This document shows positions 5,021 through 37,707 of a stretch of DNA of 64,000 nt, piece after piece. Made by a program: the position numbers and the translations under genes. Position 1 is the first letter of the stretch. Each line of letters opens with the position of its first letter. The stretch is taken from contig JBMSGE010000002.1 of assembly GCA_049414205.1 (NCBI GenBank), positions 7,207 to 71,206 on the forward strand, written 5' to 3'. The notes below the pieces were generated by a model. It did no database searches, was not told where the DNA came from, and saw nothing but the letters and a program-made list of their open reading frames with translations. The DNA comes from Nitrosopumilaceae archaeon (GTDB lineage Archaea; Thermoproteota; Nitrososphaeria; Nitrososphaerales; Nitrosopumilaceae).

Positions 5021-5365
5021 TTAGATAGCATCTTGTCCTTGCTCTACGGTTCTTATGCGAATAACGTCACTTACATCGGAGACAAAGATTTTTCCGTCAC
5101 CGGGCTTCCCAGTAGAAGCATTAGAGGCGATAGAATTCACAATTTTATTTACTTCTTCTTCTATGCAGACTATCTCTATCTTTCTTTTTGGAACCAGATC
5201 ATCGGCTTCATAGTCCTCGGAACTTGCACCAGATCGTATCATTCCGATTTGGTCCCCTCTACCCCTAACCTCATAAGTGGTCATTCCCTTAACACCTAAT
5301 TTTGTCAGAGTAGTTTTTACTTCTTGAAACTTTGTATCTCGAATTATCGCTTCAATTTTTTTCAT
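5021..5365 (-). CDS. PII nitrogen-regulatory family protein with a long acidic T-loop
   Basis: MKKIEAIIR...GRGDQ...KIEIVC...GKPGDGKIFVSDVSDVIRIRT matches the PII fold signature. Confidence 0.9.
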   Translation of the reverse strand: MKKIEAIIRDTKFQEVKTTLTKLGVKGMTTYEVRGRGDQIGMIRSGASSEDYEADDLVPKRKIEIVCIEEEVNKIVNSIASNASTGKPGDGKIFVSDVSDVIRIRTVEQGQDAI

Positions 5366-6352: not shown

Positions 6353-6550
6353 CTATTCTGTTGGCTTTGCCTTTTTTCCACGAGCCTTTGTTCTTAAAAC
6401 AGCCTGACAACATACGCATCTTATTTTTTCCGTAGTTAGAAAAAGCCCACAGAACGTACATCTCTTCTGACCAAGTTTGTATCTCACTCTATTTGGAACA
6501 GGCTCTGCCCTATGCATCACACATATTCCTCTACATGTTCTCCCCATCAC
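6353..6550 (-). CDS. Cys-rich zinc-finger microprotein
   Basis: 65 aa with CRGIC...CTFC...CVCC and a basic tail. Its start overlaps the TFB stop (ATGA). Confidence 0.6.
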   Translation of the reverse strand: MMGRTCRGICVMHRAEPVPNRVRYKLGQKRCTFCGLFLTTEKIRCVCCQAVLRTKARGKKAKPTE

Positions 6551-7449
6551 ATATCACCTCCTATTTTTAGTCGGATTTCTTTTGCTCTATCTCGGATAGT
6601 TACAGGACTGATTCCCGATGCTTCAGCAATTTTAATTTGTGAAATTTTCTCTCCGTTTGAAAGTGAAGCGAGATGAACTACTGCAGCTGCCATTGCCATA
6701 GGGTTTTTGCTGACACTTATTCCATTATCTTGTACAGTTTCCATCATTTTCAGGGCAATCATGCGTGTTTTGTTCCCTGCCCCAACTGCGGTTGCAACTC
6801 GTTCAACAAAATCAATGGGGCTAAAAGTTTCAGGATTAATTTCGAGTTCTTGCATCAGGAATCGGCATGCACCCTGAAGATATTTTCTCTTGACATTTCC
6901 TGCATTGGCAATATCTTGGATAGTTCTAGGAGTGTTTGTCAACCTACATGACATGTATACTGTTGCACACAAAATTCCGATTGTTGAGCGACCACTCAGA
7001 ATTTTTTTTGCAGATGCCTTTCTGAAAAGATATGCAGATTTTTCAACTACAGATTCGGGTAAACCAAGCTTTGCCTTGATTGCATCAAGCATGGTGAATG
7101 CTTTAGTAAAGGATTTTTGCTCTTGCTTGTATCTGCTATTTCTATCCCATAACCGAAGTCTATGAAATGTTCTAGCATTTTCTGAAGAAAGACTTTTCCC
7201 AGTAGAATCTTTGTTGTTTTTCTGAATTACCGTTGATAACCCCATATCGGAAAGCTTGAGTGTTAATTTTCTTCCAACTCTTGTGTTAGACTCGTATTCT
7301 TCTTTGGAGACTCCAACTTGTTCAGGTCCAGTAACTACTGCCTTCTCCAAAATTACAGAGCCGCAACTACCACAAGCAATTTCACCTGTAGAGATATCAG
7401 TTATAGGATATAGGTTCTTGCAGTTTTTTTCATGAATAACAGACATCAA
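6547..7449 (-). CDS. tfb: transcription initiation factor B (TFB/TFIIB) paralogue 1
   Basis: 300 aa with an N-terminal ribbon (ACGSCGSV) and two cyclin-fold repeats. C-terminal HTH is 'IAEASGISPVTIRDRAKEI'. The first Zn knuckle is reduced to a single Cys (NCKN). Confidence 0.9.
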   Translation of the reverse strand: MMSVIHEKNCKNLYPITDISTGEIACGSCGSVILEKAVVTGPEQVGVSKEEYESNTRVGRKLTLKLSDMGLSTVIQKNNKDSTGKSLSSENARTFHRLRLWDRNSRYKQEQKSFTKAFTMLDAIKAKLGLPESVVEKSAYLFRKASAKKILSGRSTIGILCATVYMSCRLTNTPRTIQDIANAGNVKRKYLQGACRFLMQELEINPETFSPIDFVERVATAVGAGNKTRMIALKMMETVQDNGISVSKNPMAMAAAVVHLASLSNGEKISQIKIAEASGISPVTIRDRAKEIRLKIGGDM

Positions 7450-7649
7450 AAGTCATACCTCCTTGGAATTTTTTGGCTCTTTAAATGAGAGAAAACAAAT
7501 AGACTGCCACAATTTTCACAGGATATTCCAAATTCATAATTGTCTACATTAGAGTGTCCGCACTCAACACAGATTTTTAATTTGGAATTTATCATAAAAC
7601 ATTTCTTTGTATTTTTCAAATCAATTTGTGGGAAAGTTATTTGGCTCAT
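7446..7649 (-). CDS. zinc-ribbon microprotein
   Basis: 67 aa with CVECG...CENCG. Its stop overlaps the TFB start by 4 nt. Confidence 0.6.
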   Translation of the reverse strand: MSQITFPQIDLKNTKKCFMINSKLKICVECGHSNVDNYEFGISCENCGSLFVFSHLKSQKIPRRYDF

Positions 7650-7669: not shown

Positions 7670-7707
7670 TTATTTAAGATGGTGGTAAATTAGGCTACTA
7701 GTGCTAA
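7670..7707 (-). promoter_or_regulatory. promoter of the ZnR-TFB-ZnF operon
   Basis: Minus-strand read: TTAGCACTAG-TAGCCTAATTTACCACCATC-TTAAATAA, then 20 nt to the ATG at 7649. Confidence 0.6.
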
Positions 7708-7748: not shown

Positions 7749-8630
7749 TTAGCTAAGATTCAATGGAATGCTAGCACTTCCCCAAGGTTCGTTTATTCGA
7801 AATACATAATCTTTTGAAGAATCGTATTTGAATTCTGTGCCGCCATATCCGATGTTTGGACCAAAGAATATGTTGAAGGTTCTTGACTCACCTGGTTTGA
7901 TTACAAGTAAGCCACTGGTGAAGTCTGTTGATGCATACTTGAAGGATTTGCTTCCATCCCAGACATCATAATTACACACAGATGGACCTGAGCACATCAA
8001 CTGGAGGTTTTCATTACCAGTATTTTCTACTAACATGTCAATATTCAAGTGAGCATTACCAGATTGAGTAATCTCGACTTCTGCTCCAGGGTAGTAAAAT
8101 ATTGCAGATCCAACATTGTATGTTTCAGAATTGTTTTTAAATTCTAAAACCTTCATTTCATGTTTTACAGCTCTTTCACATTCTAATCGCTCATATGCTT
8201 TCTTGATGCTATTACACTCTTCAAGTTTTGCTTCAAGATTTCCTAATTCTTTACCATCAGAGGATCTAGGTTCTTCTACAGATTTGTCATTTGCACCAAT
8301 TGAAATTAATCCTGACTTTATCAGGAATTGTATTCCTTGCACAAATGATTCATCATCGATATCACCATTTGCCCACCAGGCTGCGTTGTTTTTAACCCAT
8401 TCAGGAACTCCCTGAGATTTTTGTTCAGATACCTGAGTTGGAGGAACCACGATTATTCCATCTTGAATAAGGAATTCGATTCCTTGAATAAATTCGGATT
8501 CAGAGATGGTTCCATCTGCCCACCACCCTGCATTATTTTTGACCCATGCAGGTACAGGCTCAGCGATTGCAAATTGAGCAATAGAACCTATCAATAAAAT
8601 TGCGGCAATTGAAGTAATTGTTGTTTTCAT
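7749..8630 (-). CDS. secreted protein with two tandem 'P(A/E)WVKNNAxWWAxG...F(I/V)QGI(E/Q)FLI' repeats
   Basis: Signal-peptide-like N-terminus (MKTTITSIAAILLIGSIAQFAIA). An internal repeat of about 50 aa is visible in both protein and DNA. Confidence 0.7.
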   Translation of the reverse strand: MKTTITSIAAILLIGSIAQFAIAEPVPAWVKNNAGWWADGTISESEFIQGIEFLIQDGIIVVPPTQVSEQKSQGVPEWVKNNAAWWANGDIDDESFVQGIQFLIKSGLISIGANDKSVEEPRSSDGKELGNLEAKLEECNSIKKAYERLECERAVKHEMKVLEFKNNSETYNVGSAIFYYPGAEVEITQSGNAHLNIDMLVENTGNENLQLMCSGPSVCNYDVWDGSKSFKYASTDFTSGLLVIKPGESRTFNIFFGPNIGYGGTEFKYDSSKDYVFRINEPWGSASIPLNLS

Positions 8631-8650: not shown

Positions 8651-8688
8651 AGTATTTAAAATAGTGCCAAAACCATACCTAGTGCTAA
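8651..8688 (-). promoter_or_regulatory. promoter of 7749..8630
   Basis: Minus-strand read: TTAGCACTAG-GTATGGTT-TTGGCACTAT-TTTAAATACT, then about 20 nt to the ATG at 8630. A third box, TTGGCACTAC, lies at 8704-8713. Confidence 0.6.
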
Positions 8689-8829: not shown

Positions 8830-8868
8830 CTAGTGGTAACGTGGAATTTTTCACTTTGGCTTTATAAA
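8830..8868 (+). promoter_or_regulatory. promoter of the DUF1722 gene (inverted, degenerate box)
   Basis: CTAGTGGTAA (8830-8839), then 21 nt, then TTTATAAA (8861-8868), then 21 nt to the ATG at 8890. Confidence 0.4.
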
Positions 8869-8889: not shown

Positions 8890-9447
8890 ATGAAAAGAAC
8901 AACGGAAGGTATGACAAAAAGTACTTTTCAGATGCCCAAATTAACTGAAAAAGACATCGCTGAATATGTGTTGGAAAGATTTTATGAACTAAAAGAAGTA
9001 CCTCGTATGCAAGATTTAGTAACTTTTCATTCCAACAATAAGTATCTCATAATGGCCCACAGCCAAGTTCATCTAAAGGAATTGGGTAATGTTGTAGCAA
9101 ATCATGAAAAGCAACCATTAAAAAAAGTCCTAAATGATTACCAAAAAATTCTCATAACAACCCTTAAAATAAAACCCACGGTAAAAACCCACATTAATGC
9201 ATTAATGCATATTTTTGGGTTTTTTGGAAAATATCTAAGTCAAAAAGAAAAATCTATTTTCATGCAATTCATTAAAGGATATAGAGAAGACAAAATAAAA
9301 TTAGGAAAAATATTGTCAGAGATTGAGCCAATTACTTACAAAATAAACAATCTATATTTGATTAGTCAAACTTACTTTCTGTTGTATTCTGATCCCAATA
9401 TGGGGAATGTGTTTAACAGAGTTAGCATAAAATCGTTTAGAGATTAG
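8890..9447 (+). CDS. DUF1722 (YbgA-like) protein
   Basis: 'LVTFHSNNKYLIMAHSQVHLKELG' and 'HINALMHIFGFF...LSQKEK' recall the YbgA/DUF1722 family. In E. coli that gene is linked to the photolyase gene. Confidence 0.65.
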   Translation: MKRTTEGMTKSTFQMPKLTEKDIAEYVLERFYELKEVPRMQDLVTFHSNNKYLIMAHSQVHLKELGNVVANHEKQPLKKVLNDYQKILITTLKIKPTVKTHINALMHIFGFFGKYLSQKEKSIFMQFIKGYREDKIKLGKILSEIEPITYKINNLYLISQTYFLLYSDPNMGNVFNRVSIKSFRD

Positions 9448-9477: not shown

Positions 9478-10869
9478 TTAGATAGGTTTGCCTTTGTATT
9501 GGTAATCTATTACCTTGTGGAACAAATTATGAGAGGCAATAATTGCAACCACAGTAATTGCTATCCCCACAAAGTTCCTGATAATAACGGCCTCAGAAGG
9601 CTGAGTTGCAATAAGAGACATCTGAAATACAACATGGAAGTTATCAAATAGCCAAAACGCCATAGTCACCCAGGTTAAGACCCCTGCCATCAAATATCCT
9701 AATCGGGTTTTGTTATACACAAACAATATTGAAAACCCAATTGCAACATACCAAATTCCTGATGCCAATAACCAAAGGGGCTCATATACGTCAGGCCTAT
9801 TATCAAGCCAATAGTAAGTAGAGCCACAAATAGCATATGCAAAAAGACTCACCATGAGAATTTTTTGGTTTATTTTAAATCCAGTTTTCTCTTCTTTTTT
9901 ATTATGATTAGGCGGATTTTTTTGTATTTCTTTAGTTGCAATATCAATTGCATCTCTTACGGATTTTAGATGTAATGGAATTATTTTTTGAATCTCATCG
10001 TTTTGTACTACAGTGTCATGTACTAAGCTGTCAATCAGAGGTCTTGCAAGCGAAGCTTTAACCGGAGTGATAAGATCCACCCAATAAGACGACAATCTAG
10101 TTGTTAAAAATGGGATTTGTAAAATAAACAAATTTTTGTTTAGATATGCAGAGTAAACCCGCATTAATTCCTCATAGGTCATTTTATCAGGACCGCCAAT
10201 ATCATATATTTTCCCTGATGTTTCTTCATGTTCCATGCACCCCACAAGATATTCTACCACATCATCCACTGCAATTGGTTGTGCGAGAGATTTTACCCAG
10301 GAAGGACAGACCATAAATCGTAATCGTTCTACAAGGTATCGTAACATTGCATAAGATCCACCCTCTGCACCAATTATCAATGAAGCTCTAAGTTCTGTAA
10401 CAGGAATCCTTCCAGAGGACAGAATCTCCCCTACTTCTTTTCTACTTTTCATATGTGGAGAAAGTTCATGATCAGTATTGACTAAGCCTCCAAGATAGAT
10501 TATTCGTTTAACACCTGCTTTGGTAGCTGCATTTAAGAAATTTTCTGCCTGAATTTTTTCTCTTGCGGCAAAATCTTTCCATTTTTCTTTGCTTCCTTCC
10601 ATAGAGTGTAGAAGGTAGTATGCAGTTTCTATCCCTCTTAAGGAATTTGTTAATTCTTCCAAATCAAAAACATCAGTTTTTACAAATTTAATTTGAGGTC
10701 TGTCACCTATTTCTTTTCTAGACATTCCTTTTACAGAATAGCCTCTTTTAACAAGAGAATCAAGTAAGCGAGATCCAATAAAACCGGTAGCGCCTGTGAC
10801 CATTATAGAGTAAGGGCTTTTTTGCATAGACGCTACCTTCTCAATTTCTTGTTTCAATTTAAATTGCAC
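9478..10869 (-). CDS. NAD(P)-binding NmrA/SDR-like oxidoreductase with a C-terminal multi-TM domain
   Basis: Rossmann motif VTGATGFIGSRL near the N-terminus. About 4 hydrophobic helices occupy the last 130 aa or so. Confidence 0.8.
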   Translation of the reverse strand: MQFKLKQEIEKVASMQKSPYSIMVTGATGFIGSRLLDSLVKRGYSVKGMSRKEIGDRPQIKFVKTDVFDLEELTNSLRGIETAYYLLHSMEGSKEKWKDFAAREKIQAENFLNAATKAGVKRIIYLGGLVNTDHELSPHMKSRKEVGEILSSGRIPVTELRASLIIGAEGGSYAMLRYLVERLRFMVCPSWVKSLAQPIAVDDVVEYLVGCMEHEETSGKIYDIGGPDKMTYEELMRVYSAYLNKNLFILQIPFLTTRLSSYWVDLITPVKASLARPLIDSLVHDTVVQNDEIQKIIPLHLKSVRDAIDIATKEIQKNPPNHNKKEEKTGFKINQKILMVSLFAYAICGSTYYWLDNRPDVYEPLWLLASGIWYVAIGFSILFVYNKTRLGYLMAGVLTWVTMAFWLFDNFHVVFQMSLIATQPSEAVIIRNFVGIAITVVAIIASHNLFHKVIDYQYKGKPI

Positions 10870-11092
10870 CCACTCTAGTTGGTTTTTCTCGTTTTCTCTC
10901 TCGTTTTACTTTGAGTCCAAATCCAATTGTTGCTGCGCCTATGGCCGTCCAGAATATGCCTCCCATTCCATATGCAGAATGTAAGGTATAATCCAATTCT
11001 CCAGCAATTGCAAATCCTGCGCCTAATGCGGTAATTACACCACCAGCTGTTACTATCGTTTTATCCAAAAATTTCACCTCCCACAAATTCAA
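10859..11092 (-). CDS. small membrane protein (start uncertain)
   Basis: Gly/Ala-rich TM helices. Overlaps the downstream gene by 11 nt. An alternative TTG at 11068 is preceded by GGAGGTGA. Confidence 0.5.
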   Translation of the reverse strand: MNLWEVKFLDKTIVTAGGVITALGAGFAIAGELDYTLHSAYGMGGIFWTAIGAATIGFGLKVKRERKREKPTRVGAI

Positions 11093-11183
11093 AATTTTGA
11101 GTTTTGGTCAGTGTTTGTTTGTTATCGTCTTGTTTTTCAATTATGTTATCATGTGTTTTCATGATAGTAGTGTTGTTTTTATT

Positions 11184-11221
11184 TTATTTAAACTGGTGGT
11201 AAATTTTCTCTCTAGTGCTAA
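11184..11221 (-). promoter_or_regulatory. promoter of the 11162/11092-9478 operon
   Basis: Minus-strand read: TTAGCACTAG-AGAGAAAATTTACCACCAGT-TTAAATAA, then 21 nt to the ATG at 11162. Nearly the same module as at 7670-7707. Confidence 0.6.
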
Positions 11222-11275: not shown

Positions 11276-11312
11276 TTAGCACTAGGTTTCTTTATTGGCA
11301 TTTATTAAATAC
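11276..11312 (+). promoter_or_regulatory. promoter of the B12-binding regulator gene
   Basis: TTAGCACTAG-GTTTCTTTA-TTGGCATTTA-TTAAATAC. This lies inside the 5' end of the ORF-track model, so the real start is probably the in-frame TTG at 11337. Confidence 0.55.
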
Positions 11313-12179
11313 AAGATACTAAAAAGGAGAAATGGCTTGGTATACATTAGAGCAAAAAAGATCAAAGGAGATCAGTACCTATACCTCGTAAAAAGTGTCT
11401 GGGATAAACAAAAAAACACATCTAGGCAGGAAATTGTAAAGTATCTAGGAAAGGCCTCTTCAGTAGTTAAAGACGACATTCCTCCTGATTATAGGAATGA
11501 TCCCAAAATCATATCATTTTTGTCAGCTTACAATCCCGAAGATATGAAAAAAAGAGAGGAGGCAAGGAAAAAAACTCAAGATATACTATATAAAAAATTC
11601 ACCCAAGGAGACATCAAAGCTTCTTTAAAAATTTTTGAAGATTACGAGAAACTATTCAGTACAGCCGACTTTTTTGACAAGATCTTAAGATCAGTGATGC
11701 ATAAAATTGGGGATGATTGGGCAAATAACAAAATCAGTATAGCAACAGAACATGTAGCATCAAACGTGGCGCAAGGATTAGTGAAAATAATAATGGACAG
11801 GAATCAAGGTGAGTCAAGTAAGAAGAAGGTTCTAATTTGCATTCCTCAAGGAGAGGAACATCGCTTAGGGTGTGATGTTTTGGAAACTTTTCTTAGTTCA
11901 AAAGGTTTCAAAGTATACAATCTTGCAAATGGAGCTCCAAATGAATCGATAGTTAGCTTTGTCGAAACAACCAAACCTGATGTTATTTTTGTATCAATCA
12001 CATTGGATGATAATATTAAACCTGGTCAGCGTCTTGTAAAGAAAATTTCTGATTCTTTTGACGTTCCAATTTTTGTTGGAGGTTTTGCTTTAGAAAATGA
12101 AAAAACACCAAAGTTCAATGCCACTGTGTTGAAGGATATTTCATTGGAGCAGATTCCGAGAATAATAAAAGCTGCTTGA
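11295..12179 (+). CDS. CarH-like cobalamin (AdoB12)-binding photoreceptor-type protein with a non-MerR N-terminal domain
   Basis: W-x9-EH (DDWANNKISIATEH), then 36 residues to E-x-H-x-x-G (GEEHRLG), then SxL (VSITL) and GG (VGGFAL). This gives B12-binding_2 plus B12-binding domains. The likely true start is TTG 11337: (M)VYIRAKKIKGDQYLYLVKS. Confidence 0.8.
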   Translation: MAFIKYKILKRRNGLVYIRAKKIKGDQYLYLVKSVWDKQKNTSRQEIVKYLGKASSVVKDDIPPDYRNDPKIISFLSAYNPEDMKKREEARKKTQDILYKKFTQGDIKASLKIFEDYEKLFSTADFFDKILRSVMHKIGDDWANNKISIATEHVASNVAQGLVKIIMDRNQGESSKKKVLICIPQGEEHRLGCDVLETFLSSKGFKVYNLANGAPNESIVSFVETTKPDVIFVSITLDDNIKPGQRLVKKISDSFDVPIFVGGFALENEKTPKFNATVLKDISLEQIPRIIKAA

Positions 12180-12180
12180 C

Positions 12181-13539
12181 CTAAACTGTAGAGATTACAA
12201 ATTTTTGTTTTTGCAAGTATTCCATAATCTTTGGATAGCATAAAAGCGAGCTGTGAGCAGCCGAATCTGTCCCTATCCCATAACTCACAGTAGAATCCCC
12301 AATAAAGAAAAGTCCATCAACACCTTTTACTTGATGAGGCATTTTGGATTTCCATACTTTGCCAGGTTTTTTTACAACAGATTCCACTAAACTCCAAGCC
12401 ATAGGTCTTTCCCATAACAGGGACTTTTCAAAATCAGGATAGATGTGATTGATTTCATTTTTCATTTTTTCTACAGTTTCCTTGATTTTTTGTACATTTT
12501 TTACATGATCTGGTGGGACAGGAGTTCCAGCAATTATGAGGTGTTCTCCTCGAGGAGAGACTTTTGGAGTCATATTAGATATAAAGAAAATTCCCTTAGC
12601 AGTGTAATGTTTTCCAACTGGAAATACAACATGTCTTTTATCCAATTTTTTAGATAGTGCAAAATGAACTTCTATTACAGCGGTAGTATCATTAAGGGTA
12701 TTGACCTTTTGAATGAATTTTTGATCAAAAACTTTCTTGTCAAACAATTGATTTATTGCATGATATGCAGGATAAGAAATAACAACACAATCATGCTTGT
12801 GGAAATTTCCATGCTGATCAATTAATCCCGTTACACGTCCATCTTGAACTATTATTCTTTTAATTGAATTTTTTAAGAATACTTTGTTTTTGTTTATTTC
12901 AATATAGTCTTTCAAAATTTTAGAAATCTTGTCATATCCACCTTCAGCAGGATATGCAAACTCACTAGTTCCCCCTTTGAATGGGTTTGCTCGAATTATT
13001 GTTCGTGTGAATTCACCTAAAGAGATATTTTTTGCCGAATCTGCAAAGGCCAGCATACATACAGCCTCGAAAAAAGCATTTGTTTTCTCATCTAGATTTT
13101 TCGTAATATCCAAAAGAGAAGTATCATCCCATGATTCTGTCTTTTCCATAGAAGAAAAGGCCAAGGGTATTAGGATTTTTAATAAAGATAGTCTACTTTT
13201 GAAAGGAACCATAGATAATTTCAATAAATCAAGAATCCCCTTTGGATAAAGATGAAATTTATCTCCTGAAAAAAAGGCTATATCGTCAACTTTTTCTAAT
13301 TTCAAGTGCGATTCAATACCAATTCTTTTCAAAATTTTGTAAATTGCAGATTGTGTGTAAAATGGCATAATATGAAATCCATTATCTAGCAGATGCCCCT
13401 TATAGTAGATGGAGGCAGTTCTACCACCCACCTTGCCATATTTTTCATATATCTCAGTCGATATTTTTTGTTTTGTTAAAAGGGCACCCAAGGTTAATCC
13501 ACCCACACCTGCACCAATTATGGCGACGTTATTTTTCAA
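12181..13539 (-). CDS. FAD-dependent oxidoreductase, phytoene-desaturase (CrtI/CrtD) family
   Basis: N-terminal dinucleotide fold VAIIGAGVGGLTLGALL...E. 452 aa with C-terminal 'FFIGDSTVSYGIG'. Confidence 0.8.
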   Translation of the reverse strand: MKNNVAIIGAGVGGLTLGALLTKQKISTEIYEKYGKVGGRTASIYYKGHLLDNGFHIMPFYTQSAIYKILKRIGIESHLKLEKVDDIAFFSGDKFHLYPKGILDLLKLSMVPFKSRLSLLKILIPLAFSSMEKTESWDDTSLLDITKNLDEKTNAFFEAVCMLAFADSAKNISLGEFTRTIIRANPFKGGTSEFAYPAEGGYDKISKILKDYIEINKNKVFLKNSIKRIIVQDGRVTGLIDQHGNFHKHDCVVISYPAYHAINQLFDKKVFDQKFIQKVNTLNDTTAVIEVHFALSKKLDKRHVVFPVGKHYTAKGIFFISNMTPKVSPRGEHLIIAGTPVPPDHVKNVQKIKETVEKMKNEINHIYPDFEKSLLWERPMAWSLVESVVKKPGKVWKSKMPHQVKGVDGLFFIGDSTVSYGIGTDSAAHSSLLCYPKIMEYLQKQKFVISTV

Positions 13540-13559
13540 TATACAGTATAGGAGGTTTT

Positions 13560-13598
13560 TGTATATATGCAGTTAGCATTATCATCTTATAGTGCCAA
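13560..13598 (-). promoter_or_regulatory. promoter of the CrtI-like gene
   Basis: Minus-strand read: TTGGCACTAT, then 21 nt, then TATATACA, then 20 nt to the TTG at 13539. Confidence 0.5.
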
Positions 13599-13605
13599 CG
13601 GCAAT

Positions 13606-14049
13606 CTAAACAACAGCATTTTGATTTACCTCACAACTATGAATAAATTCATCCATGATTTTGTTTATTTTTTTTTCAATAAAGAATTTTGCAGGATAAA
13701 GAAGTTTAAAGAATCCGTTAAACTTTAACTGTACTTTTATTTCCACTTTTGTTCCATCATCTAATTCTTCATAACATTCAAGAAAAGATGAGCCAGTAAG
13801 AGGTCCAGACAAAATATTAATTTCGTGAATATTTGGCTTTGAAATTTTATGTTTAGTTTGAACCCTTAGAGAAGTTCCCAAAAATGAAAGATCTTCATCA
13901 ACAAAAATTTCTGAATTTATAATTTTGGTTATGCGCAAAGAGCGAAAATAATTAGGCATCAAATTTGAAAAATTTTCAATATCCGTACTAATCTCAAAAA
14001 TTTTTTTTCTATCAACATGAGTGTTTCTAGATATTTTAAGAATTAGCAT
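13606..14049 (-). CDS. SRPBCC/polyketide-cyclase-like protein
   Basis: 147 aa with an SRPBCC-like pattern (IFEISTDIENFSNLMPNYF...). Overlaps the upstream ORF by 7 nt. Confidence 0.6.
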   Translation of the reverse strand: MLILKISRNTHVDRKKIFEISTDIENFSNLMPNYFRSLRITKIINSEIFVDEDLSFLGTSLRVQTKHKISKPNIHEINILSGPLTGSSFLECYEELDDGTKVEIKVQLKFNGFFKLLYPAKFFIEKKINKIMDEFIHSCEVNQNAVV

Positions 14050-14408
14050 GATATTGAGACCTTTGACAAATAATCTTGTAAATTGGTTTTCCCAATAGGT
14101 AAATCAGGATACAGTTTTTTAATGAAATCACATAAAAGTACCATGCTTATTTTCACTGAATCAGTTTTTTTCGGATCGGTTAATGGGTACAACCTTATTG
14201 TTGTTTTGCCCTTACTTGCCAATACTTCAATGAAAAACTCTTGGCTTTCTTGATCAATTACAAGAGTGTGAACTAGTGCATTTTTCTTAGACGAGCTAAC
14301 ATACATTTCTTTGAGCCGTATTATACAAGGATTTTTTTTAAGTATGACTTGAAATTGACCTTGGATTTTCTCAAGATCCACATCCCCATTTAGAACTATG
14401 TGAGGCAT
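14043..14408 (-). CDS. hypothetical protein
   Basis: 121-aa ORF lying in an operon between the Zn-ribbon ORF and the SRPBCC gene. Confidence 0.55.
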   Translation of the reverse strand: MPHIVLNGDVDLEKIQGQFQVILKKNPCIIRLKEMYVSSSKKNALVHTLVIDQESQEFFIEVLASKGKTTIRLYPLTDPKKTDSVKISMVLLCDFIKKLYPDLPIGKTNLQDYLSKVSISC

Positions 14409-14443: not shown

Positions 14444-14623
14444 TCACACTGTGAACAATTTTTCCTTGAATTCATCAACAAACATGTAGACTTTGCATCT
14501 AGTACATGCCAAGAAATCTTTTGATTTTTTCCCCCCAGTGGCAGTTACTAGGACTAATGCCTTGCGTCGACATTTAGGACATTCGGCCTCAAGGTCTCTT
14601 CTGTTCGAGTATTGTAAATTCAT
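14444..14623 (-). CDS. zinc-ribbon microprotein (59 aa, below the track cutoff)
   Basis: Own translation: MNLQYSNRRDLEAECPKCRRKALVLVTATGGKKSKDFLACTRCKVYMFVDEFKEKLFTV. The ATG lies exactly 20 nt after a module-type TATA. Confidence 0.55.
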   Translation of the reverse strand: MNLQYSNRRDLEAECPKCRRKALVLVTATGGKKSKDFLACTRCKVYMFVDEFKEKLFTV

Positions 14624-14643
14624 AGACTTACTTGGCTAAAATG

Positions 14644-14680
14644 ATATTTAACTAATGCCAACTAAAATTTATAGTGCTAA
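14644..14680 (-). promoter_or_regulatory. promoter of the 14623-13606 operon
   Basis: Minus-strand read: TTAGCACTAT-AAATTTTAG-TTGGCATTAG-TTAAATAT, then 20 nt to the ATG at 14623. Confidence 0.6.
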
Positions 14681-15715: not shown

Positions 15716-16120
15716 ATGTCTCGATATGAAAAAATGTTAAACATGATAATGGATTTTAATAGTTCCATAAGGTTGGCAGTGATAAGCGATACTGCAGGGG
15801 ACATTCTTTGGAATTCTAAAAGAAAAGATGTTACTTTAAAAATTCCACTTTCTGAAACCAAAAAAGCTCTCAAACGAGAAGCATCCGATTGGGTAGAGAG
15901 ATGCAAACTAGAAGATAGCAGCAACATAGGAAGAGGAATGTATAACATTACATCCTTTGAAAAGATAAAGAGAATATCAATACCAATTGATGCATTTCAT
16001 CTGCTATTCATCAGTGTAGATAACGAGCCTCTAAAAAAGAGTAAAACAAAAAGCTATGGGAAATTAGTAGAAATGGGAAAAATAATGTCCATAGTAGACT
16101 TTGCAAATACTTTTGAATAA
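15716..16120 (+). CDS. paralogue family A member 1 (possibly roadblock/LC7-like fold)
   Basis: About 50% identical to 21545..21943 and more distantly related to 32365..32721. 'IRLAVISDTAGDILW' resembles a roadblock-type beta-strand. Confidence 0.65.
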   Translation: MSRYEKMLNMIMDFNSSIRLAVISDTAGDILWNSKRKDVTLKIPLSETKKALKREASDWVERCKLEDSSNIGRGMYNITSFEKIKRISIPIDAFHLLFISVDNEPLKKSKTKSYGKLVEMGKIMSIVDFANTFE

Positions 16121-16155: not shown

Positions 16156-16524
16156 CTAAATTTGTTCACTTAGTTTTTTTAATTTTTTGACATCAGTAAT
16201 TTCAATATGGTTGCTAAGAGTTACAATTTTTGCTAATTTTGGATTAGCATCTTTTCCCAATTTTAGTACAGTGTCACCCCTGAATCTTATTTCCATAGTA
16301 ATGTTTTGTTGGCTAAGATTTTTGGCAAGATTTTTGGCTTGAGAAAGTTGCTTTATCAATCCAGGTTTTTTAGAAAGTGTGATTGGAATTTCGAGTATAT
16401 CAAGAATTCTGGAATTTCCCAGAGTTTGAAAATTAATAGACGGAGTATTATTTGTAGAAATTTGTACAGCACCTTTTTCTAAATAAGTTAAAAAATTGGC
16501 GGAGAGGTTTTTTTCCATTCTCAT
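16156..16524 (-). CDS. hypothetical protein
   Basis: 122-aa ORF lying 5 nt downstream of 16530..16715. Confidence 0.5.
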   Translation of the reverse strand: MRMEKNLSANFLTYLEKGAVQISTNNTPSINFQTLGNSRILDILEIPITLSKKPGLIKQLSQAKNLAKNLSQQNITMEIRFRGDTVLKLGKDANPKLAKIVTLSNHIEITDVKKLKKLSEQI

Positions 16525-16529
16525 CCTAC

Positions 16530-16715
16530 CTACTTTGCAGTAATTGTCAGTTTTCCATTTAAGGAAACTGTTCCTGTGGGAACTATTTTGCCACCTTTTT
16601 CAACCTTGCCTTTCATTTCCAAATCATCAAACGCATAAGTGATGGAGGCATGTTTTTGGGTCAGTTTGTCAAAAACTTCTGCTAGCAAATTAGCCCATTC
16701 TTGTTCTTCAGTCAT
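16530..16715 (-). CDS. hypothetical small protein
   Basis: 61 aa. The ATG lies 20 nt after a module-type TATA. Confidence 0.5.
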   Translation of the reverse strand: MTEEQEWANLLAEVFDKLTQKHASITYAFDDLEMKGKVEKGGKIVPTGTVSLNGKLTITAK

Positions 16716-16735: not shown

Positions 16736-16772
16736 ATATTTAACCTAGTGATAAATTTTGTACTAGTGCCAA
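16736..16772 (-). promoter_or_regulatory. promoter of the 16715-16156 operon
   Basis: Minus-strand read: TTGGCACTAG-TACAAAAT-TTATCACTAGG-TTAAATAT, then 20 nt to the ATG at 16715. Confidence 0.6.
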
Positions 16773-16915: not shown

Positions 16916-16951
16916 TTAACACTAGAAAAGTTATTGGTCTTTGTATAAATT
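16916..16951 (+). promoter_or_regulatory. promoter of TFB paralogue 2
   Basis: TTAACACTAG, then 18 nt including TTGGTCTTTG, then TATAAATT, then 21 nt to the ATG at 16973. Confidence 0.5.
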
Positions 16952-16972: not shown

Positions 16973-17875
16973 ATGAGCAAAAAAAGTCAAAAAAAGATTT
17001 GCAAACATGGTTTGGTAATTACAGATTTTGTCACAGGTGAAATTTCATGTGGGCATTGTGGAGTAGTAATATCAGAGAAAAATGTTGTCATAGGTCAAGA
17101 AACTACAGGTCATGCCAATAACGAGTATCAAGGAATGGTAAGAACGGGACAACAAATTTCATTAAAAATGGCAGACATGGGATTGTCCACCATAATCGAA
17201 TCTCAAGACAAGGATTCTTCTGGAAAATCTCTTTCTGTAGACAATAAAAGATCCTTTTATCGATTAAGAATGTGGGACAGGAATAGCAGACATGCCATTA
17301 CAAATCAATCATTTGTTAGTGCATTTACACTACTAGATGGAATAAGATCTAAATTGGCTTTGCCAGATCATGTGGTAGAGAAAACGGCATATATTTTTAG
17401 AAAAGCTCATCAAAAAAAACTCTTACCGGGACGTTCAACTCAGGTTATTTTATGCGCATCCGTTTATTTGGCATGCAGGATGACAGATACGCCGCGAACG
17501 CTTACAGATATTGCTGTTGCCGCAGGAGTGAAAAAGAAGGCAGTGCAACGAGCATATCGTTTCCTTACAAGAGAATTAGGAGCATATACCAAGGCCTACA
17601 ATCCGAGCGAATTTGTCTCAAGAATTTCAAATGAAGTTAGGATTTCAGAAAAATCAAAATCATATGCCCGAGAAATTCTGAAGTTAGGTAACGAAAAGGG
17701 AATTACCGAAGGTAAAAATCCAATGTCTATGGCAGCAGCCGCTGTGTATTTGGCTGTTAAAAAAAATCATGAGAAAATTCCGCAGACACGAATTTCAATA
17801 GCAGCTGGAATTAGCGCAGTAACCATTAGAAACAGAGTAAAAGAATTACTTGTGATTGAGAGAAAGGAGCATTAG
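16973..17875 (+). CDS. tfb: transcription initiation factor B (TFB/TFIIB) paralogue 2
   Basis: 300 aa and about 50% identical to 6547..7449. Ribbon is CKH...CGHCG, followed by two cyclin folds. C-terminal 'IAAGISAVTIRNRVKEL'. Confidence 0.9.
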   Translation: MSKKSQKKICKHGLVITDFVTGEISCGHCGVVISEKNVVIGQETTGHANNEYQGMVRTGQQISLKMADMGLSTIIESQDKDSSGKSLSVDNKRSFYRLRMWDRNSRHAITNQSFVSAFTLLDGIRSKLALPDHVVEKTAYIFRKAHQKKLLPGRSTQVILCASVYLACRMTDTPRTLTDIAVAAGVKKKAVQRAYRFLTRELGAYTKAYNPSEFVSRISNEVRISEKSKSYAREILKLGNEKGITEGKNPMSMAAAAVYLAVKKNHEKIPQTRISIAAGISAVTIRNRVKELLVIERKEH

Positions 17876-17908
17876 CACTAGTTACCATTTTTATCACTAG
17901 TTAAATAT
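17872..17908 (+). promoter_or_regulatory. promoter of 17930..18313
   Basis: TTAGCACTAG-TTACCATTT-TTATCACTAG-TTAAATAT, then 21 nt to the ATG at 17930. The distal box overlaps the TFB2 stop codon. Confidence 0.6.
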
Positions 17909-17929: not shown

Positions 17930-18313
17930 ATGACAGCACTAGTACAAAAAATAGAAACACAACCTCCAAAGTTAGAACCATATTTTTATCAATTCTTTCA
18001 GGACGTTGTAAATACAATGCCAGTAGTTGATCCTGAGCTTCTCATACGTGTGATGATGTTTCAGGTTAATCTAAAAAAATACCCTGGCCCAGATATTCCT
18101 CACGTGAATCTCTATGTCAAATACAAAGAAGGCGTCAACCTACATCAAAAACAAGAAGAAGGTAGAGACACCTATCCATTTGAAGTAACTACAAGCAGAT
18201 GGGGAGACGGAGTAATTTTCTCAGGACTGATGAATATTGGAACTGTCGAATCTGTATGTTCAGATCCTGATATTGTCGAAGTTACAGGAGAAGCAAAACC
18301 TACACATAATTAA
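17930..18313 (+). CDS. hypothetical protein
   Basis: 127-aa ORF with a module-type promoter. Confidence 0.55.
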   Translation: MTALVQKIETQPPKLEPYFYQFFQDVVNTMPVVDPELLIRVMMFQVNLKKYPGPDIPHVNLYVKYKEGVNLHQKQEEGRDTYPFEVTTSRWGDGVIFSGLMNIGTVESVCSDPDIVEVTGEAKPTHN

Positions 18314-18440: not shown

Positions 18441-19217
18441 TCAAGCCCAGGAGATAATTTTTTGGTTATGGTTTGAAAAACCCAAAAACATCCCTAATGT
18501 GATTCTGGAGGATGGCCCTTGAATTTTTGTTACTTCATGATACTTTAAAGGATTGATTAGCACCAAATCCCCCTCCTCAATATTTGTGATTTTGCAAGAT
18601 TCTTCTGAAGAAGTCAATTCTGAAGAATATCCAAAGTCTATTTTACGGAATTTTTCATCAGATCTCATCCAATTTCTTCGATAGACTATCAAATCACCAC
18701 CTGCTTCGGATTTTTGTAGGTGTAGAACGCAAGAGAGCTGGCCATCAAGGTTTGCAATAGAGTATTCTTTTCCTTCATAGTTCACATGATCTTTGTGAAG
18801 GGGAATCGATTTCCCCATTTCATGAATACGAATGATGAATGGAGAGAATTCATCACCTGATTCATGGGCTAATGTGATTTCAGATTCAGGGAAAACGACC
18901 TTGAGCATTTTAAAAATCTTATTTGTCGGAATTTGAGATGAACCAAAAATAAAATCAAACTTTGAGTTGGCAATTTTTACCTGTTCAAAATATTCTCTTT
19001 TTTTTGTTGTATACGACATTAGAAATGGGCCGATATGAGTTAACTTTTCATTTTGGAAATTATTTTCAGGCATACTAAGAATTCTATCAGAGATAAATTT
19101 ACAATACTCTTTTTCATAAAATTGCTTTAAAATTATTGCAGGCACCTTGCCGAAGATTAAAGAGTCATAATCAATCTTGTTCCAATCAGGTTTGTTTACA
19201 ATTAGAGGTTCCCACAC
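18441..19217 (-). CDS. 2OG-Fe(II) oxygenase superfamily protein
   Basis: HxD...H facial triad candidates (PLHKDH ... KYHEV) plus RITLGMF (Rx[ST]-like). GTG start overlaps the upstream stop by 1 nt. Confidence 0.65.
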   Translation of the reverse strand: MWEPLIVNKPDWNKIDYDSLIFGKVPAIILKQFYEKEYCKFISDRILSMPENNFQNEKLTHIGPFLMSYTTKKREYFEQVKIANSKFDFIFGSSQIPTNKIFKMLKVVFPESEITLAHESGDEFSPFIIRIHEMGKSIPLHKDHVNYEGKEYSIANLDGQLSCVLHLQKSEAGGDLIVYRRNWMRSDEKFRKIDFGYSSELTSSEESCKITNIEEGDLVLINPLKYHEVTKIQGPSSRITLGMFLGFSNHNQKIISWA

Positions 19218-19504
19218 TAATACCCACCAACACCAGAATGTGAAACTTTGGCCAGAAGAACTCCTCCGTCATCACGTACATCTATCTCACATTTTAGAAA
19301 GGCATCTTTTATGCAATCTGAAAGGGTTTCAGAGGTCCAATCTTTTTGTTCGTGCGGAAATCCAGGTAGGTCAGCAGACGTTATTCTAATTTTTTCAGAG
19401 TCTGAGTAAGTCATCTTGTTTCCATTTTTTCTATGGGTAACATTGAGAATAAATGAATCCTGTGAAAGAGTTTGTGAACCATGTCCCCAAATTATATCTG
19501 TCAT
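19217..19504 (-). CDS. hypothetical protein (shortened from the track model 19217..19561)
   Basis: The ATG at 19504 (MTDIIWGHG...) lies 20 nt after TTATATCT. The longer model would run through the promoter box. Confidence 0.5.
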   Translation of the reverse strand: MTDIIWGHGSQTLSQDSFILNVTHRKNGNKMTYSDSEKIRITSADLPGFPHEQKDWTSETLSDCIKDAFLKCEIDVRDDGGVLLAKVSHSGVGGY

Positions 19505-19524: not shown

Positions 19525-19564
19525 AGATATAACCATAATATAGAATAATTGAATTTAGCACTAG
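19525..19564 (-). promoter_or_regulatory. promoter of the 19504-18441 operon (box in inverted orientation)
   Basis: Minus-strand read: CTAGTGCTAA, then 22 nt, then TTATATCT, then 20 nt to the ATG at 19504. Confidence 0.45.
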
Positions 19565-19706: not shown

Positions 19707-20141
19707 TCAAATATCTTTCATACGGTTGGTATAGTCATAGTGGAAGATTTTTTTAGGCGTAATTTCGATTGCAACTTCTGATTTCGATTTAATTTTTAAG
19801 AATTTTGAAAGTGTGGAATCTTTTTTCCCCAAATATTTGTCAATAAGAAGTTGCAAAATTTCATTTCCTCTTTCTTCAACAATTCGTGCTTTACCCTCCC
19901 CTCGTGCTCCTTTGTAAGGGGGTTTGTCTCCTGCTATTTCAAAACCACATGAGGGGTTGTTTTGTAAATAAGATACTATTTTTGCACTTTTCTGTGTGGC
20001 ACAGAAAAGTTTACCGCCAATTTCAACATACCATAATGACAGAACAGATGGTACACCGCTAGGTTTTAGATACGCGAGTCTTATTGGAATTTTTTTATCA
20101 GAAATTAACTCATCGATTTTTGCATTTTCTAATTTTTGCAA
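19707..20141 (-). CDS. pyridoxamine 5'-phosphate oxidase-like FMN-binding split-barrel protein
   Basis: 144 aa. The pattern 'IRLAYLKPSGVPSVLSLWY...LFCATQKSAKIV' is typical of the PPOX/general-stress-26 family. Confidence 0.7.
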   Translation of the reverse strand: MQKLENAKIDELISDKKIPIRLAYLKPSGVPSVLSLWYVEIGGKLFCATQKSAKIVSYLQNNPSCGFEIAGDKPPYKGARGEGKARIVEERGNEILQLLIDKYLGKKDSTLSKFLKIKSKSEVAIEITPKKIFHYDYTNRMKDI

Positions 20142-20254
20142 ATTTCCTTACCTCCACAAACTCTGGCCACATATTTTGAGTAACAATAATCACATGACCA
20201 ATCATGAAAATGTTTACCGCAATTTTTGCATTTTTGAATAGTGATTAGACTCAT
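20129..20254 (-). CDS. zinc-finger microprotein (41 aa)
   Basis: Own translation: MSLITIQKCKNCGKHFHDWSCDYCYSKYVARVCGGKEICKN. The ATG lies 20 nt after a module-type TATA. Confidence 0.45.
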   Translation of the reverse strand: MSLITIQKCKNCGKHFHDWSCDYCYSKYVARVCGGKEICKN

Positions 20255-20274: not shown

Positions 20275-20311
20275 ATATTTTAATAGTGTTGAAGTTCCCA
20301 ACTAGTGCTAA
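20275..20311 (-). promoter_or_regulatory. promoter of the 20254-19707 operon
   Basis: Minus-strand read: TTAGCACTAG-TTGGGAACT-TCAACACTAT-TAAAATAT, then 20 nt to the ATG at 20254. Confidence 0.6.
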
Positions 20312-21544: not shown

Positions 21545-21943
21545 TTGGAAAAGCATGAACAACTTCTCAACATGTTAATGGATTTCAATAAAGATGTGAG
21601 ATTTGCCGCTATTTGTAACTCCAAAGGAGAAATTTTATGGCACAGTCAAAGAACTGGAGTTAAAAACATTGTTCCATTTGCAGATACAAAAAAAACTCTT
21701 CTAAGGGCAGTTGGTGCTTGGCAAGAAAGAGTCAAAGTAACAAACATTGTAGGTAGAGGATTATACACAATTGCAGCATATGAAAAAATCAAGAGAATAA
21801 CAATACCTCTTGATGGAGGGAACTTACTTTTCATTAGTGTTGGAAACAGTCCGTTAAAATCAAGTAAAGGAAAAAGCTATGGTCATTTAGTTGAAATGGG
21901 GAAAATAATGTCCATAGTAGACTTTGTAAACCAAAACAACTAG
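21545..21943 (+). CDS. paralogue family A member 2
   Basis: About 50% identical to 15716..16120. The TTG start is supported by N-terminal alignment (MEKHEQLLNMLMDF against MSRYEKMLNMIMDF). Confidence 0.65.
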   Translation: MEKHEQLLNMLMDFNKDVRFAAICNSKGEILWHSQRTGVKNIVPFADTKKTLLRAVGAWQERVKVTNIVGRGLYTIAAYEKIKRITIPLDGGNLLFISVGNSPLKSSKGKSYGHLVEMGKIMSIVDFVNQNN

Positions 21944-37672: not shown

Positions 37673-37707
37673 AGCATTTAAAGATAAAATAATCCAGATA
37701 TTTTGAA

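Follow-up and report, generated by a model that had tools for sequence, protein, structure and literature searches.

A candidate B12-dependent light-responsive regulator and its promoter island in Nitrosopumilaceae

The window analysed here is a stretch of 64,000 nucleotides (nt) from a Nitrosopumilaceae archaeon (GenBank assembly GCA_049414205.1, contig JBMSGE010000002.1). It encodes a protein, hereafter the regulator, in which a non-MerR N-terminal domain precedes a B12-binding module like that of the bacterial photoreceptor CarH. The gene lies at the centre of a 13-kb island filled by about 12 promoters that carry the DNA box TTRGCACTAG. We propose that the regulator is an adenosylcobalamin (AdoCbl)-dependent, light-responsive transcription factor that does in an archaeon what CarH/LitR does in bacteria, with a DNA-binding head of another kind, and we give this mechanism, taken in full, a slightly better than even chance of being right. 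The sequence-only reading of this DNA had likewise pointed to an archaeal B12-dependent light sensor, and the in silico checks on profile hidden Markov models (HMMs), sequences of the Protein Data Bank (PDB), motifs, orthologues, and promoters were all favourable to it.

A CarH-type B12 module behind an unusual N-terminal domain

The gene and the parts of its product are located as follows.
11337-12179, plus strand: regulator gene, 280 amino acids, TTG start, with B12-binding_2 and B12-binding domains (Pfam).
11337-11471, plus strand: N-terminal three-stranded beta-domain (residues 1-45), putative DNA-binding head, delimited by the AlphaFold2 model and by homologues of the domain.
11619-11804, plus strand: helical cap subdomain (B12-binding_2, PF02607) carrying Wx9EH, residues 115-165 of the 294-residue reading frame, with helices in the AlphaFold2 model.
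11718-11753, plus strand: Wx9EH motif WANNKISIATEH, which in CarH forms the cap over the adenosyl group, aligned to the W, E, and H of Thermus thermophilus CarH (TtCarH) and invariant in the orthologues.
11814-12134, plus strand: Rossmann-type B12-binding subdomain (PF02310), with ExHxxG at 11853-11870, SxT at 11994-12002, and GG at 12078-12083.

The open reading frame (ORF) called mechanically runs from 11295 to 12179 on the plus strand and has 294 codons. The more than 100 close homologues are all 280 amino acids long and begin with MVYIR; hence we placed the start at the TTG at 11337, as the sequence-only reading had guessed. These homologues, as well as the 80 loci fetched from reference genomes, come exclusively from Nitrosopumilaceae; the window itself has a guanine-cytosine (GC) content of about 33% and includes genes of transcription factor B (TFB). 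The nearest homologues belong to a Nitrosopumilaceae metagenome-assembled genome (87% identity) and to Candidatus Nitrosomaritimum (78-83%), followed by Nitrosarchaeum (about 68%) and Nitrosopumilus (57-66%). Source databases label the homologues as "methanogenic corrinoid protein MtbC1", "methionine synthase", "histidine kinase", or "response regulator", and these existing names are inconsistent and in part probably wrong. On two soil-type contigs (L081, 1432-2209; L082, 8001-8787) the orthologue was called as at least two pieces, N-domain and B12 fragments. Such pieces likely reflect frameshift errors or pseudogenes instead of free-standing domains, and splitting of this type explains the many "proteins" of 50-150 amino acids returned by the N-domain search described below.

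The C-terminal two-thirds of the regulator is, to judge from its sequence, a CarH-type B12-binding module, made of a helical cap with Wx9EH and a Rossmann fold with a histidine as lower ligand. In the numbering of the 280-residue protein, the cap motif is W128-x9-E138-H139. The lower-ligand motif is E173-E-H175-R-L-G178, followed after 41 residues by S220-I-T222 and after a further 25 by G248-G249. The sequence-only reading had noted both motifs with a spacing of 36 residues, which is the distance from H139 to H175; of the two elements that it saw further downstream, GG stood, while its SxL is in fact SxT, the CarH-type SxV/T. CarH homologues and AdoCbl photoreceptors are defined by Wx9EH together with ExHx2Gx41SxV/Tx22-27GG, and Wx9EH is absent from MetH (PMC8156234, PMC9304148). 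The regulator matches the second of these motifs exactly (x41, x25).

The checks that had been proposed for the module all came out in its favour. Both Pfam domains exceeded their gathering scores (B12-binding_2, 34.5 bits against 23; B12-binding, 41.1 bits against 32.1). The top NCBIfam match of the regulator was CarH (NF052513, E 1.5e-15), and the next family, among corrinoid methyl-carrier models, had an E-value of 8e-9; the CarH match covered only the B12 module (residues 95-282) and, with 57.3 bits, missed the equivalog cutoff of 400. A HMMER alignment to TtCarH brought W, EH, and the axial histidine into register with a single gap of one residue. Finally, Wx9EH and ExHxxG-x41-SxT-x25-GG were both kept in 73 of 73 Nitrosopumilaceae orthologues taken from the loci. 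The six top matches among PDB sequences were all B12 photoreceptors, namely the photocobilins 8j2y, 8j2w, and 8j2x and then three B12-domain sequences of Thermus CarH, with methionine synthase ranking after them. Foldseek confirmed the cap and the Rossmann fold of the AlphaFold model; the whole-model search did not tell photoreceptors from MetH or corrinoid proteins, and their separation comes from sequence motifs and HMM ranking, not from the fold. We consider it very likely that the regulator binds B12, and probable that it is an AdoCbl photoreceptor.

Wx9EH was also retained in about 38 of 44 very divergent representatives of the family that joins the N-domain to the B12 module. In the diverged members P0211, P0212, P0227, P0292, and P0323 it is lost or its W is replaced by F, and the lower-ligand motif is kept. 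By analogy, proteins of this kind may be B12- or light-independent derivatives, resembling CarA relative to CarH.

In agreement with the sequence-only reading, the N-terminus is not a MerR winged helix-turn-helix. No MerR or other domain was found there in Pfam (at E<=10) or NCBIfam (at E<=1), and the AlphaFold2 model is all-beta, with antiparallel strands at residues 2-9, 12-23, and 28-39 followed by short helices (predicted local distance difference test, pLDDT, 84-90). The first 45 residues include 11 lysines or arginines and three aspartates or glutamates. A profile of this N-domain, searched against 1.84 billion representative proteins at a threshold of E<=0.001, matched 496 representatives, many of which also have a B12 module. 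Among the top 150 matches, more than 40 representatives at 50% clustering displayed this combination. Its hosts range from low GC content to 70-75% GC and include one with the annotation Thermoplasmatota archaeon; the architecture is widespread and old.

The same domain heads HNH endonucleases (P0280, P0310, P0321), an AbiEii nucleotidyltransferase of a Diapherotrites archaeon (P0302), and a DDE transposase (P0314; E 3.8e-8 to the N-domain profile, first 40 or so residues shared), which belongs to the IS1634 family by NCBIfam (NF033559, 215 bits against a cutoff of 100). The sequence-only reading had remarked that the N-terminal motif recalls putative DNA-binding N-termini elsewhere, and its occurrence on the IS1634 transposase and HNH nucleases bears this out. 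Such recurrent fusion to DNA-acting enzymes suggests that the N-domain binds nucleic acid. The regulator has no DDE catalytic domain (DDE_Tnp_1 or NF033559), its likeness to the transposase being confined to those N-terminal residues, and we know of no experimental demonstration that this segment of IS1634 transposases binds DNA.

Other proteins with the domain, of about 160-185 amino acids (P0277, P0284, P0296, P0304, P0316, and others), consist of the N-domain and a C-terminal domain of about 120 residues with no Pfam match; P0296 is named as a protein of a Woesearchaeota archaeon. Free-standing N-domain proteins were considered and rejected: a word-indexed homology search gave fragments of the same family only, and their genomic context was that of frameshift-split genes.

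The box, its island, and a probable link to light

The exact box TTRGCACTAG occurs eight times in the window, where 0.08 copies are expected from shuffles (0 of 100 shuffles reached eight), and all eight fall within 7.7-20.3 kb. With up to one mismatch there are 21 copies, compared with 4.6 expected. The promoter modules follow one order: distal box, 8-9 nt, second half-site in the same orientation, TTAAATA, and ATG. The consensus of this tandem direct-repeat operator is TTRGCACTAG-N8/9-TTnnCAYTAg, with the TATA-like element at a fixed +29 and the ATG at about +57/58 from the box start. Of the 332 exact boxes from the window plus the loci, 50% have a second copy in the same orientation (up to three mismatches) at +18/+19; elsewhere the background is about 1%. 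Because of the spacing between TATA-like element and ATG, the transcripts are apparently leaderless, which would put the distal repeat at about -57 to -48 and the proximal one at about -39 to -30, the position of the TFB-recognition element (BRE) directly 5' of the TATA box. The operator overlaps the core promoter, with its proximal copy abutting the TATA box.

A strict scan, in which a module was a box with up to two mismatches plus a TATA-like element and a start codon, found 10 modules inside the island and two weak ones in the other 51 kb. Two further island modules were recognised by eye, one upstream of the TFB gene at 16973 and one, with an inverted box, upstream of the unit starting at 19504. 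The latter unit and the DUF1722 gene represent a second promoter class, in which the box is inverted and the ATG lies exactly 60 nt from the box start. An Rfam scan of the island found no riboswitch or other RNA family.

The box follows the regulator across genomes. In 1.24 Mb around orthologues we counted 329 exact boxes, or 0.27 per kb, about 200 times the chance rate from window shuffles; these and the following counts describe regulator-bearing genomes, all 80 loci having been picked for carrying the gene. Box density peaks at 0.96 per kb in the 1-kb bin just upstream of the regulator midpoint and is 0.04-0.1 per kb at 8-10 kb on either side. ORFs of the neighbourhoods were clustered, and a box with up to one mismatch at the right distance was scored. 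The commonest regulon member was a secreted WVKNNAGWWADG-repeat protein (77 of 96 copies boxed). The box also preceded 50 of 59 CrtI-like oxidases, 40 of 45 copies of the 120-residue protein encoded before the oxidase, 33 of 93 TFB paralogues, 25 of 66 fusions of a short-chain dehydrogenase/reductase (SDR) to a membrane domain, 11 of 30 PNPOx-like genes, and every copy of two small-protein families (23/23 and, for a 62-residue family, 19/19).

The regulator gene itself is boxed in 73 of 82 cases. In an unbiased, start-codon-anchored footprint of 79 distinct regulator promoters, just three patches were conserved, namely the two repeats and the TATA box. This bears out the earlier claim that the promoter carries the shared module. 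The regulon, with regulator, CrtI-like oxidase, DUF1722/YbgA, photolyase, pyrimidine-dimer glycosylase, and TFB paralogues, recurs across 80 related genomes, and regulator, operator, and target promoters are conserved across Nitrosopumilus, Nitrosarchaeum, and Nitrosomaritimum.

Upstream sequences indicate that the box core travels with the regulator beyond Nitrosopumilaceae, including into a Thermoplasmatota archaeon. In the latter (L083, 70% GC), as well as in L093 (75% GC), the regulator is preceded by CTAGTGCC-N16-AGTGCC and then a TATA-like element. A marine locus from a TARA sample (L092, 51% GC) has TTACCACTAG-N10-TTGGACACTAG-TTAAATAT in this position, and L094 has TTAGTCACCA-N11-TTAGCACGAG-TTAAATT; in both, the repeats stand in forward tandem and abut TTAAAT. 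By our own estimate, any one locus would show an 8-mer match in an upstream region of about 100-180 nt with a probability of a few per thousand, so that chance is an unlikely source of two such matches in the eight usable loci. On balance, we lean towards the regulator as the factor that binds the box.

The genes that share the box provide the link to light. DUF1722/YbgA is the most conserved neighbour, present with an inverted box in 70 of 81 loci. Fourteen loci have a DNA photolyase gene (Pfam-confirmed), whose immediate upstream neighbour is DUF1722 or a box-controlled gene of 181 codons, and a pyrimidine-dimer DNA glycosylase (Pfam-confirmed Pyr_excise) stands directly behind an exact box in one locus (L011). 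In a very distant lineage (L085, 67% GC), the member of the regulator family is followed by a RudS-like DUF523-DUF1722 gene. DUF1722/RudS genes are reported from light-responsive operons under AdoB12-dependent LitR, among them the phrB-litR-rudS operon of Pseudomonas (PMC11417400). As annotated, the gene content of the island parallels that of bacterial B12 light regulons. In L085, the interval between the two genes contains, at 5165-5224, a perfect 12-bp direct repeat in four to five tandem copies, (CGCGTGCGCATC)n; this array may be the operator of the lineage or a mere microsatellite.

The sequence-only reading had sought the link to light elsewhere, in an echo of the bacterial CarH-crt arrangement formed by a convergent neighbour of the phytoene-desaturase family whose promoter also carries the box. 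The neighbour is indeed convergent, and the box is present in its promoter, with one mismatch in the window (TTGGCACTAT). The family assignment stood at the level of the superfamily, with a match to Pfam Amino_oxidase (89.8 bits) and one to NAD_binding_8. The CrtI model (crtI_fam, TIGR02734) matched with only 52.5 bits over residues 6-55, below its cutoff of 238, and the top full-length match was PRK07233, a "hypothetical protein" (101 bits against 252). Because the cutoff of the CrtI model was failed, the oxidase is phytoene-desaturase-like in sequence at superfamily level only and not a bona fide CrtI, which leaves the echo weak. We rejected it as the main light link; DUF1722, photolyase, and Pyr_excise, as members of a box-controlled island, take its place and are the stronger one.

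The promoters and genes of the island are listed below by position.
7698-7707, minus strand: box of the module driving a 67-residue Zn-ribbon-like ORF (7446-7649), which overlaps the start of a TFB paralogue (6547-7449).
8661-8688, minus strand: module TTAGCACTAG-N8-TTGGCACTAT, driving the secreted WVKNNAGWWADG-repeat protein (7749-8630).
8830-8839, minus strand: inverted box (CTAGTGGTAA on the plus strand), followed by a TATA-like element after 32 nt and by the DUF1722/YbgA start codon (ATG) after 60 nt.
8890-9447, plus strand: DUF1722/YbgA gene, with inverted-box promoter.
10859-11092 and 9478-10869, minus strand: 77-residue membrane protein and SDR/NmrA-membrane fusion, whose orthologous families are boxed (C7, C8; N4, N33).
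11185-11221, minus strand: divergent back-to-back module (distal box 11221-11212), driving a short leader ORF, the 77-residue membrane protein, and the SDR/NmrA-membrane fusion.
11276-11312, plus strand: own promoter of the regulator, with distal TTAGCACTAG (11276-11285), proximal TTGGCATTTA (11295-11304), and TATA-like TTAAATAC (11305-11312).
12181-13539, minus strand: flavin adenine dinucleotide (FAD) amine-oxidase / phytoene-desaturase-superfamily oxidoreductase, tail-to-tail with the regulator gene, 1 nt between the two.
13562-13598, minus strand: oxidase promoter, with distal TTGGCACTAT (13598-13589), inverted half-site AATGCTAAC, TATA element ATATATA, and TTG start at 13539.
14444-14623, 14043-14408, and 13606-14049, minus strand: 59-residue Zn-ribbon-like ORF, 121-residue protein, and SRPBCC protein, one box-headed operon.
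14643-14680, minus strand: module TTAGCACTAT-N9-TTGGCATTAG-TTAAATAT, heading the preceding operon.
16745-16772, minus strand: module TTGGCACTAG-N8-TTATCACTAG, driving genes of 61 (16530-16715) and 122 (16156-16524) codons.
16916-16951, plus strand: module TTAACACTAG, with TATAAAT at +28 and ATG at +57, upstream of a TFB paralogue (16973-17875).
17872-17908, plus strand: module TTAGCACTAG-N9-TTATCACTAG-TTAAATAT, driving a gene of 127 codons (17930-18313).
19217-19504 and 18441-19217, minus strand: 95-residue ORF and WelO5-like 2-oxoglutarate (2OG)-Fe oxygenase, the unit behind the following inverted box.
19555-19564, plus strand: box inverted relative to the minus-strand unit, with the ATG at 19504, 60 nt from the box start.
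20302-20311, minus strand: box of the module driving a 41-residue Zn-ribbon-like ORF (20129-20254) and a PNPOx-like gene (19707-20141).

Four short ORFs, all on the minus strand (7446-7649, 14444-14623, 20129-20254, and 11061-11162), lie directly behind box modules with their ATG at +57 to +59 and had fallen below the size cutoff of the ORF list. Three of them (67, 59, and 41 residues) display CxxC...CxxC Zn-ribbon-like patterns and head the operons that contain a TFB paralogue, the 121-residue, SRPBCC, and oxidase genes, and the PNPOx-like gene, respectively; the oxidase gene thereby has a box-headed operon upstream, beginning with an unannotated Zn-ribbon-like ORF, as well as a promoter of its own. 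Small families like these recur in other loci (C5, C11, C13). Of the two TFB (TFIIB) paralogues of the island, 16973-17875 (plus strand) has a one-mismatch box at the canonical +57, and 6547-7449 (minus strand) overlaps the end of a box-driven small ORF. A regulatory cascade via alternative TFBs could exist.

The secreted protein at 7749-8630 (minus strand), about 300 residues long, contains the repeat PxWVKNNAGWWADGxISxxEF twice, has a FGPNIGYGGTEF region conserved in its C-terminal part, and is matched by no Pfam family. In a lineage of 64% GC (L088), the gene just upstream of the regulator encodes a homologue of this protein. The product of 18441-19217 (minus strand) belongs to the WelO5-like 2OG-Fe(II) oxygenase/halogenase family (Pfam, 92.8 bits), and its gene appears to be co-transcribed from the inverted-box promoter. 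Paralogous genes of about 133 codons lie in and beside the island (15716-16120 and 21545-21943, both plus strand); 6 of 31 members across loci are boxed, and a related cluster representative matches Pfam DUF6659 (67.6 bits).

Outside the island, overlapping one-mismatch boxes TTAGAACTAG (plus strand) and GTAGCACTAG (minus strand) form a near-palindrome with no promoter context at 25320-25335, in the 3' part of a dCache-HAMP-cyclase gene (23828-25591). Far from the island, a weak two-mismatch module TTGGCACCAC at 37649-37708 (TATA-like element at +27, TTG at +59), upstream of an ORF of 467 codons, is probably due to chance.

Proposed mechanism, alternatives, and significance

Dark-state AdoCbl oligomers of CarH are built of head-to-tail dimers that contact direct repeats (PMC8156234). 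By analogy, we tentatively picture the regulator as a dark repressor rather than an activator, a direction to which we give a little less than an even chance. In the dark, the AdoCbl-bound regulator would oligomerise through its B12 modules, and its beta-domains would sit on the distal and proximal repeats. Their occupancy would block the contact between TFB and BRE, and the island would be repressed, including the regulator gene itself (autoregulation). Light would photolyse the Co-C bond, the oligomer would dissociate, the DNA would be freed, and the island would be expressed. The products would then include DUF1722/YbgA (with photolyase in many relatives), the CrtI-like oxidase operon, the SDR-membrane fusion, the PNPOx-like protein, the 2OG oxygenase, the secreted protein, and the small Zn-ribbon proteins, and the two island TFB paralogues could amplify the response.

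Several observations weigh against this proposal, besides the choice of the loci and the low CrtI score of the oxidase given above. The confidence of the AlphaFold2 model is low for the B12 module (pLDDT 55-75). The histidine adjoining the tryptophan, which in TtCarH is the upper ligand of the light-state bis-His adduct (PMC8156234), is an alanine in the regulator, and for this reason its light state may differ from that of TtCarH. With the N-domain as query, Foldseek against the PDB returned nothing significant (best E 0.22), and neither did the N-domain profile against PDB sequences (best E 1.9); since the Pfam and NCBIfam searches were also without a significant match, no known DNA-binding fold was assigned to this domain. 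What suggests its putative DNA-binding role is domain association, and other island proteins, namely the two TFB paralogues and the Zn-ribbon proteins, could be the factor that binds the box. The orthologues of the soil lineages (L081, L082), whose gene context also differs (citrate synthase, CofH), lack the exact box upstream and show just CACTA/TAGCAC-like cores, and the exact box was not found in loci L085 and L090. Finally, in archaea it is typically activators that bind upstream of the TATA box, which makes the direction of regulation uncertain.

The last point bears on the alternative that we find the least unlikely, in which the regulator is again a box-binding B12 photoreceptor and acts as an activator: bound at -57 to -30, it would recruit the TATA-binding protein (TBP) and TFB, possibly the island TFBs, and light would make or remove the DNA-binding form. 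The operator lies wholly upstream of the TATA box, the usual position of archaeal activator sites, with strict phasing and a box start 29 nt before the TATA-like element, and two TFB paralogues are regulon members. However, the proximal repeat covers the BRE position, where a bound protein is expected to compete with TFB, and the photoprotective character of the genes suggests expression in the light. Moreover, known regulators of the AdoCbl photoreceptor class occupy their DNA in the dark, and light releases them (PMC8156234). We regard this alternative as unlikely.

It is also unlikely, and to us slightly more so, that the regulator senses light and leaves the reading of TTRGCACTAG to another island protein, a TFB or a Zn-ribbon protein, which it would contact as AerR/PpaA contacts CrtJ/PpsR, its N-domain being an interaction or RNA-binding module. 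Such a division of labour would suit an N-domain that matches no known DNA-binding fold, the presence of AerR among the sequence and structure matches of the regulator, and the conservation of small Zn-ribbon proteins and TFBs in the island. Against it, a transposase and HNH nucleases carry the N-domain as well, and the box core follows the regulator across phyla even where the fetched locus lacks the rest of the island (L083, L092, L093). TFB would not be expected to reach as far as the distal site, some 20 nt 5' of the TATA box; a TFB paralogue is less likely to read this box, and might possibly read the proximal copy at the BRE position.

A third alternative, which we consider improbable, would make the regulator a sensor of cobalamin status, its DNA binding reporting the availability of B12 and not light. 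Ammonia-oxidizing archaea are major producers of B12, and a B12-binding module with apparent autoregulation would be in keeping with such a role. In about 12 Nitrosopumilus loci (clusters N36-N39), genes flanking the island have N-termini resembling HemA, HemB, and siroheme synthase, a likeness to tetrapyrrole biosynthesis that was judged by eye only. Yet there is no gene for cobalamin biosynthesis, cobalamin transport, or a B12-dependent enzyme among the box-controlled genes, Wx9EH is tied in the literature specifically to the function of AdoCbl photoreceptors, and the partner genes, DUF1722, photolyase, and Pyr_excise, suggest a response to light or ultraviolet (UV) radiation. Last, a non-regulatory corrinoid protein, either a methyl-carrier like MtbC/MtaC or a B12 chaperone, would agree with the MtbC1 and methionine synthase annotations and with weak NCBIfam matches to corrinoid proteins, but is very improbable given that these matches are far below their cutoffs (best TIGR02370, 35 bits against 215), that no methyltransferase family is found among the conserved neighbours in 81 loci, and that the conserved N-domain, Wx9EH, and the operator in the regulator's own promoter would be left unexplained.

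The reading that we favour is that of a light-responsive, box-binding regulator. In its broadest form, whose chances we see as evenly balanced, there would be a family of B12-dependent photoreceptor transcription factors in at least two archaeal phyla (Nitrososphaerota and Thermoplasmatota). Its DNA-binding head would be one that IS1634-type transposases also have at their N-terminus, and may have been taken over from them; the family would read tandem repeats with a GCACTAG core and govern a compact island for light and UV stress, with alternative TFBs, in the main ammonia oxidizers of the ocean. Ammonia-oxidizing archaea drive marine nitrification and are inhibited by light. The literature that we searched, with subscription journals incompletely covered, contained no account of a B12 photoreceptor from any archaeon, Thaumarchaeota included, or of the TTRGCACTAG box, and no paper on a light sensor or light regulon of ammonia-oxidizing archaea; matches to the box sequence were coincidental primers and miRNAs. 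If our proposal is true, this would be the first light-sensing pathway described in these archaea, and one that senses light via a cofactor that they themselves supply to the sea.

These findings offer a concrete candidate for light sensing in marine nitrifiers, consisting of one protein, a defined operator, and about 12 target promoters. They would extend B12 photobiology to archaea and add a new class of putative DNA-binding head, with relevance to the evolution of photoreceptors and to the design of optogenetic tools. They also suggest a likely nucleic-acid-binding role for a widespread, unannotated domain of IS1634 transposases, HNH nucleases, AbiEii toxins, and small DPANN proteins.

Comparison with known systems

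The closest parallel is CarH/LitR (CarH of Thermus thermophilus, Myxococcus xanthus, and Bacillus megaterium; class I LitR). Both have the same cap and Rossmann module with both motifs, and the same order of N-terminal DNA-binding head (putative in the regulator), linker, and C-terminal sensor. Apparent autoregulation and photoprotection genes in the neighbourhood are also shared, as are tandem direct-repeat operators that overlap core promoter elements, with repeats of 11 bp for TtCarH (PMC8156234). The differences begin with the head, a MerR winged helix there and an unrelated three-stranded beta-domain here. The host is archaeal, with TATA/BRE promoters and a repeat period of 18-19 bp rather than 11 bp; the histidine beside the tryptophan is missing, the CarH score is 57 bits against a cutoff of 400, and the regulon is an island of about 12 promoters instead of one or two operons. 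By the family's own definition the regulator is not a member of CarH/LitR, because a MerR domain is missing and its score falls far short of the curated cutoff.

The phrB-litR-rudS genes of Pseudomonas, with a class II LitR, likewise couple a B12-domain regulator to DUF1722/RudS and photolyase (PMC11417400). Here, by contrast, DUF1722 is stand-alone (YbgA-like) in Nitrosopumilaceae and fused as DUF523-DUF1722 only in the distant L085, and both the DNA-binding domain and the host, an archaeon, are different. Photocobilins (8J2W, 8J2X, and 8J2Y; PMC10979010) were the top matches of the B12 module (E 1.5e-10 to 3e-10), have Wx9EH in common with the regulator, and exemplify the reuse of a CarH-type module in other architectures. 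They differ in their C-terminal globin-like biliverdin domain and enzyme effectors and lack an N-terminal DNA-binding head; the regulator has nothing comparable to the former.

AerR/PpaA also employs a B12-binding domain in light-dependent gene control, and is a weak match of the regulator in sequence and fold (7te2, E 1.7e-4). AerR has no DNA-binding domain and works through CrtJ/PpsR, whereas the regulator carries a conserved N-domain as well and matches CarH better. Nothing like CrtJ/PpsR was noticed among its neighbours, no search having been aimed at CrtJ/PpsR. The IS1634 transposases (NF033559), which have the N-terminal 40 or so residues in common with the regulator, carry a DDE domain where the regulator has its fusion to a sensor. 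Set beside these systems, the regulator is best described as new within the class of B12-photoreceptor regulators in four respects, namely its predicted DNA-binding head, the archaeal promoter context, the repeat period of 18-19 bp, and a much larger, island-type regulon.

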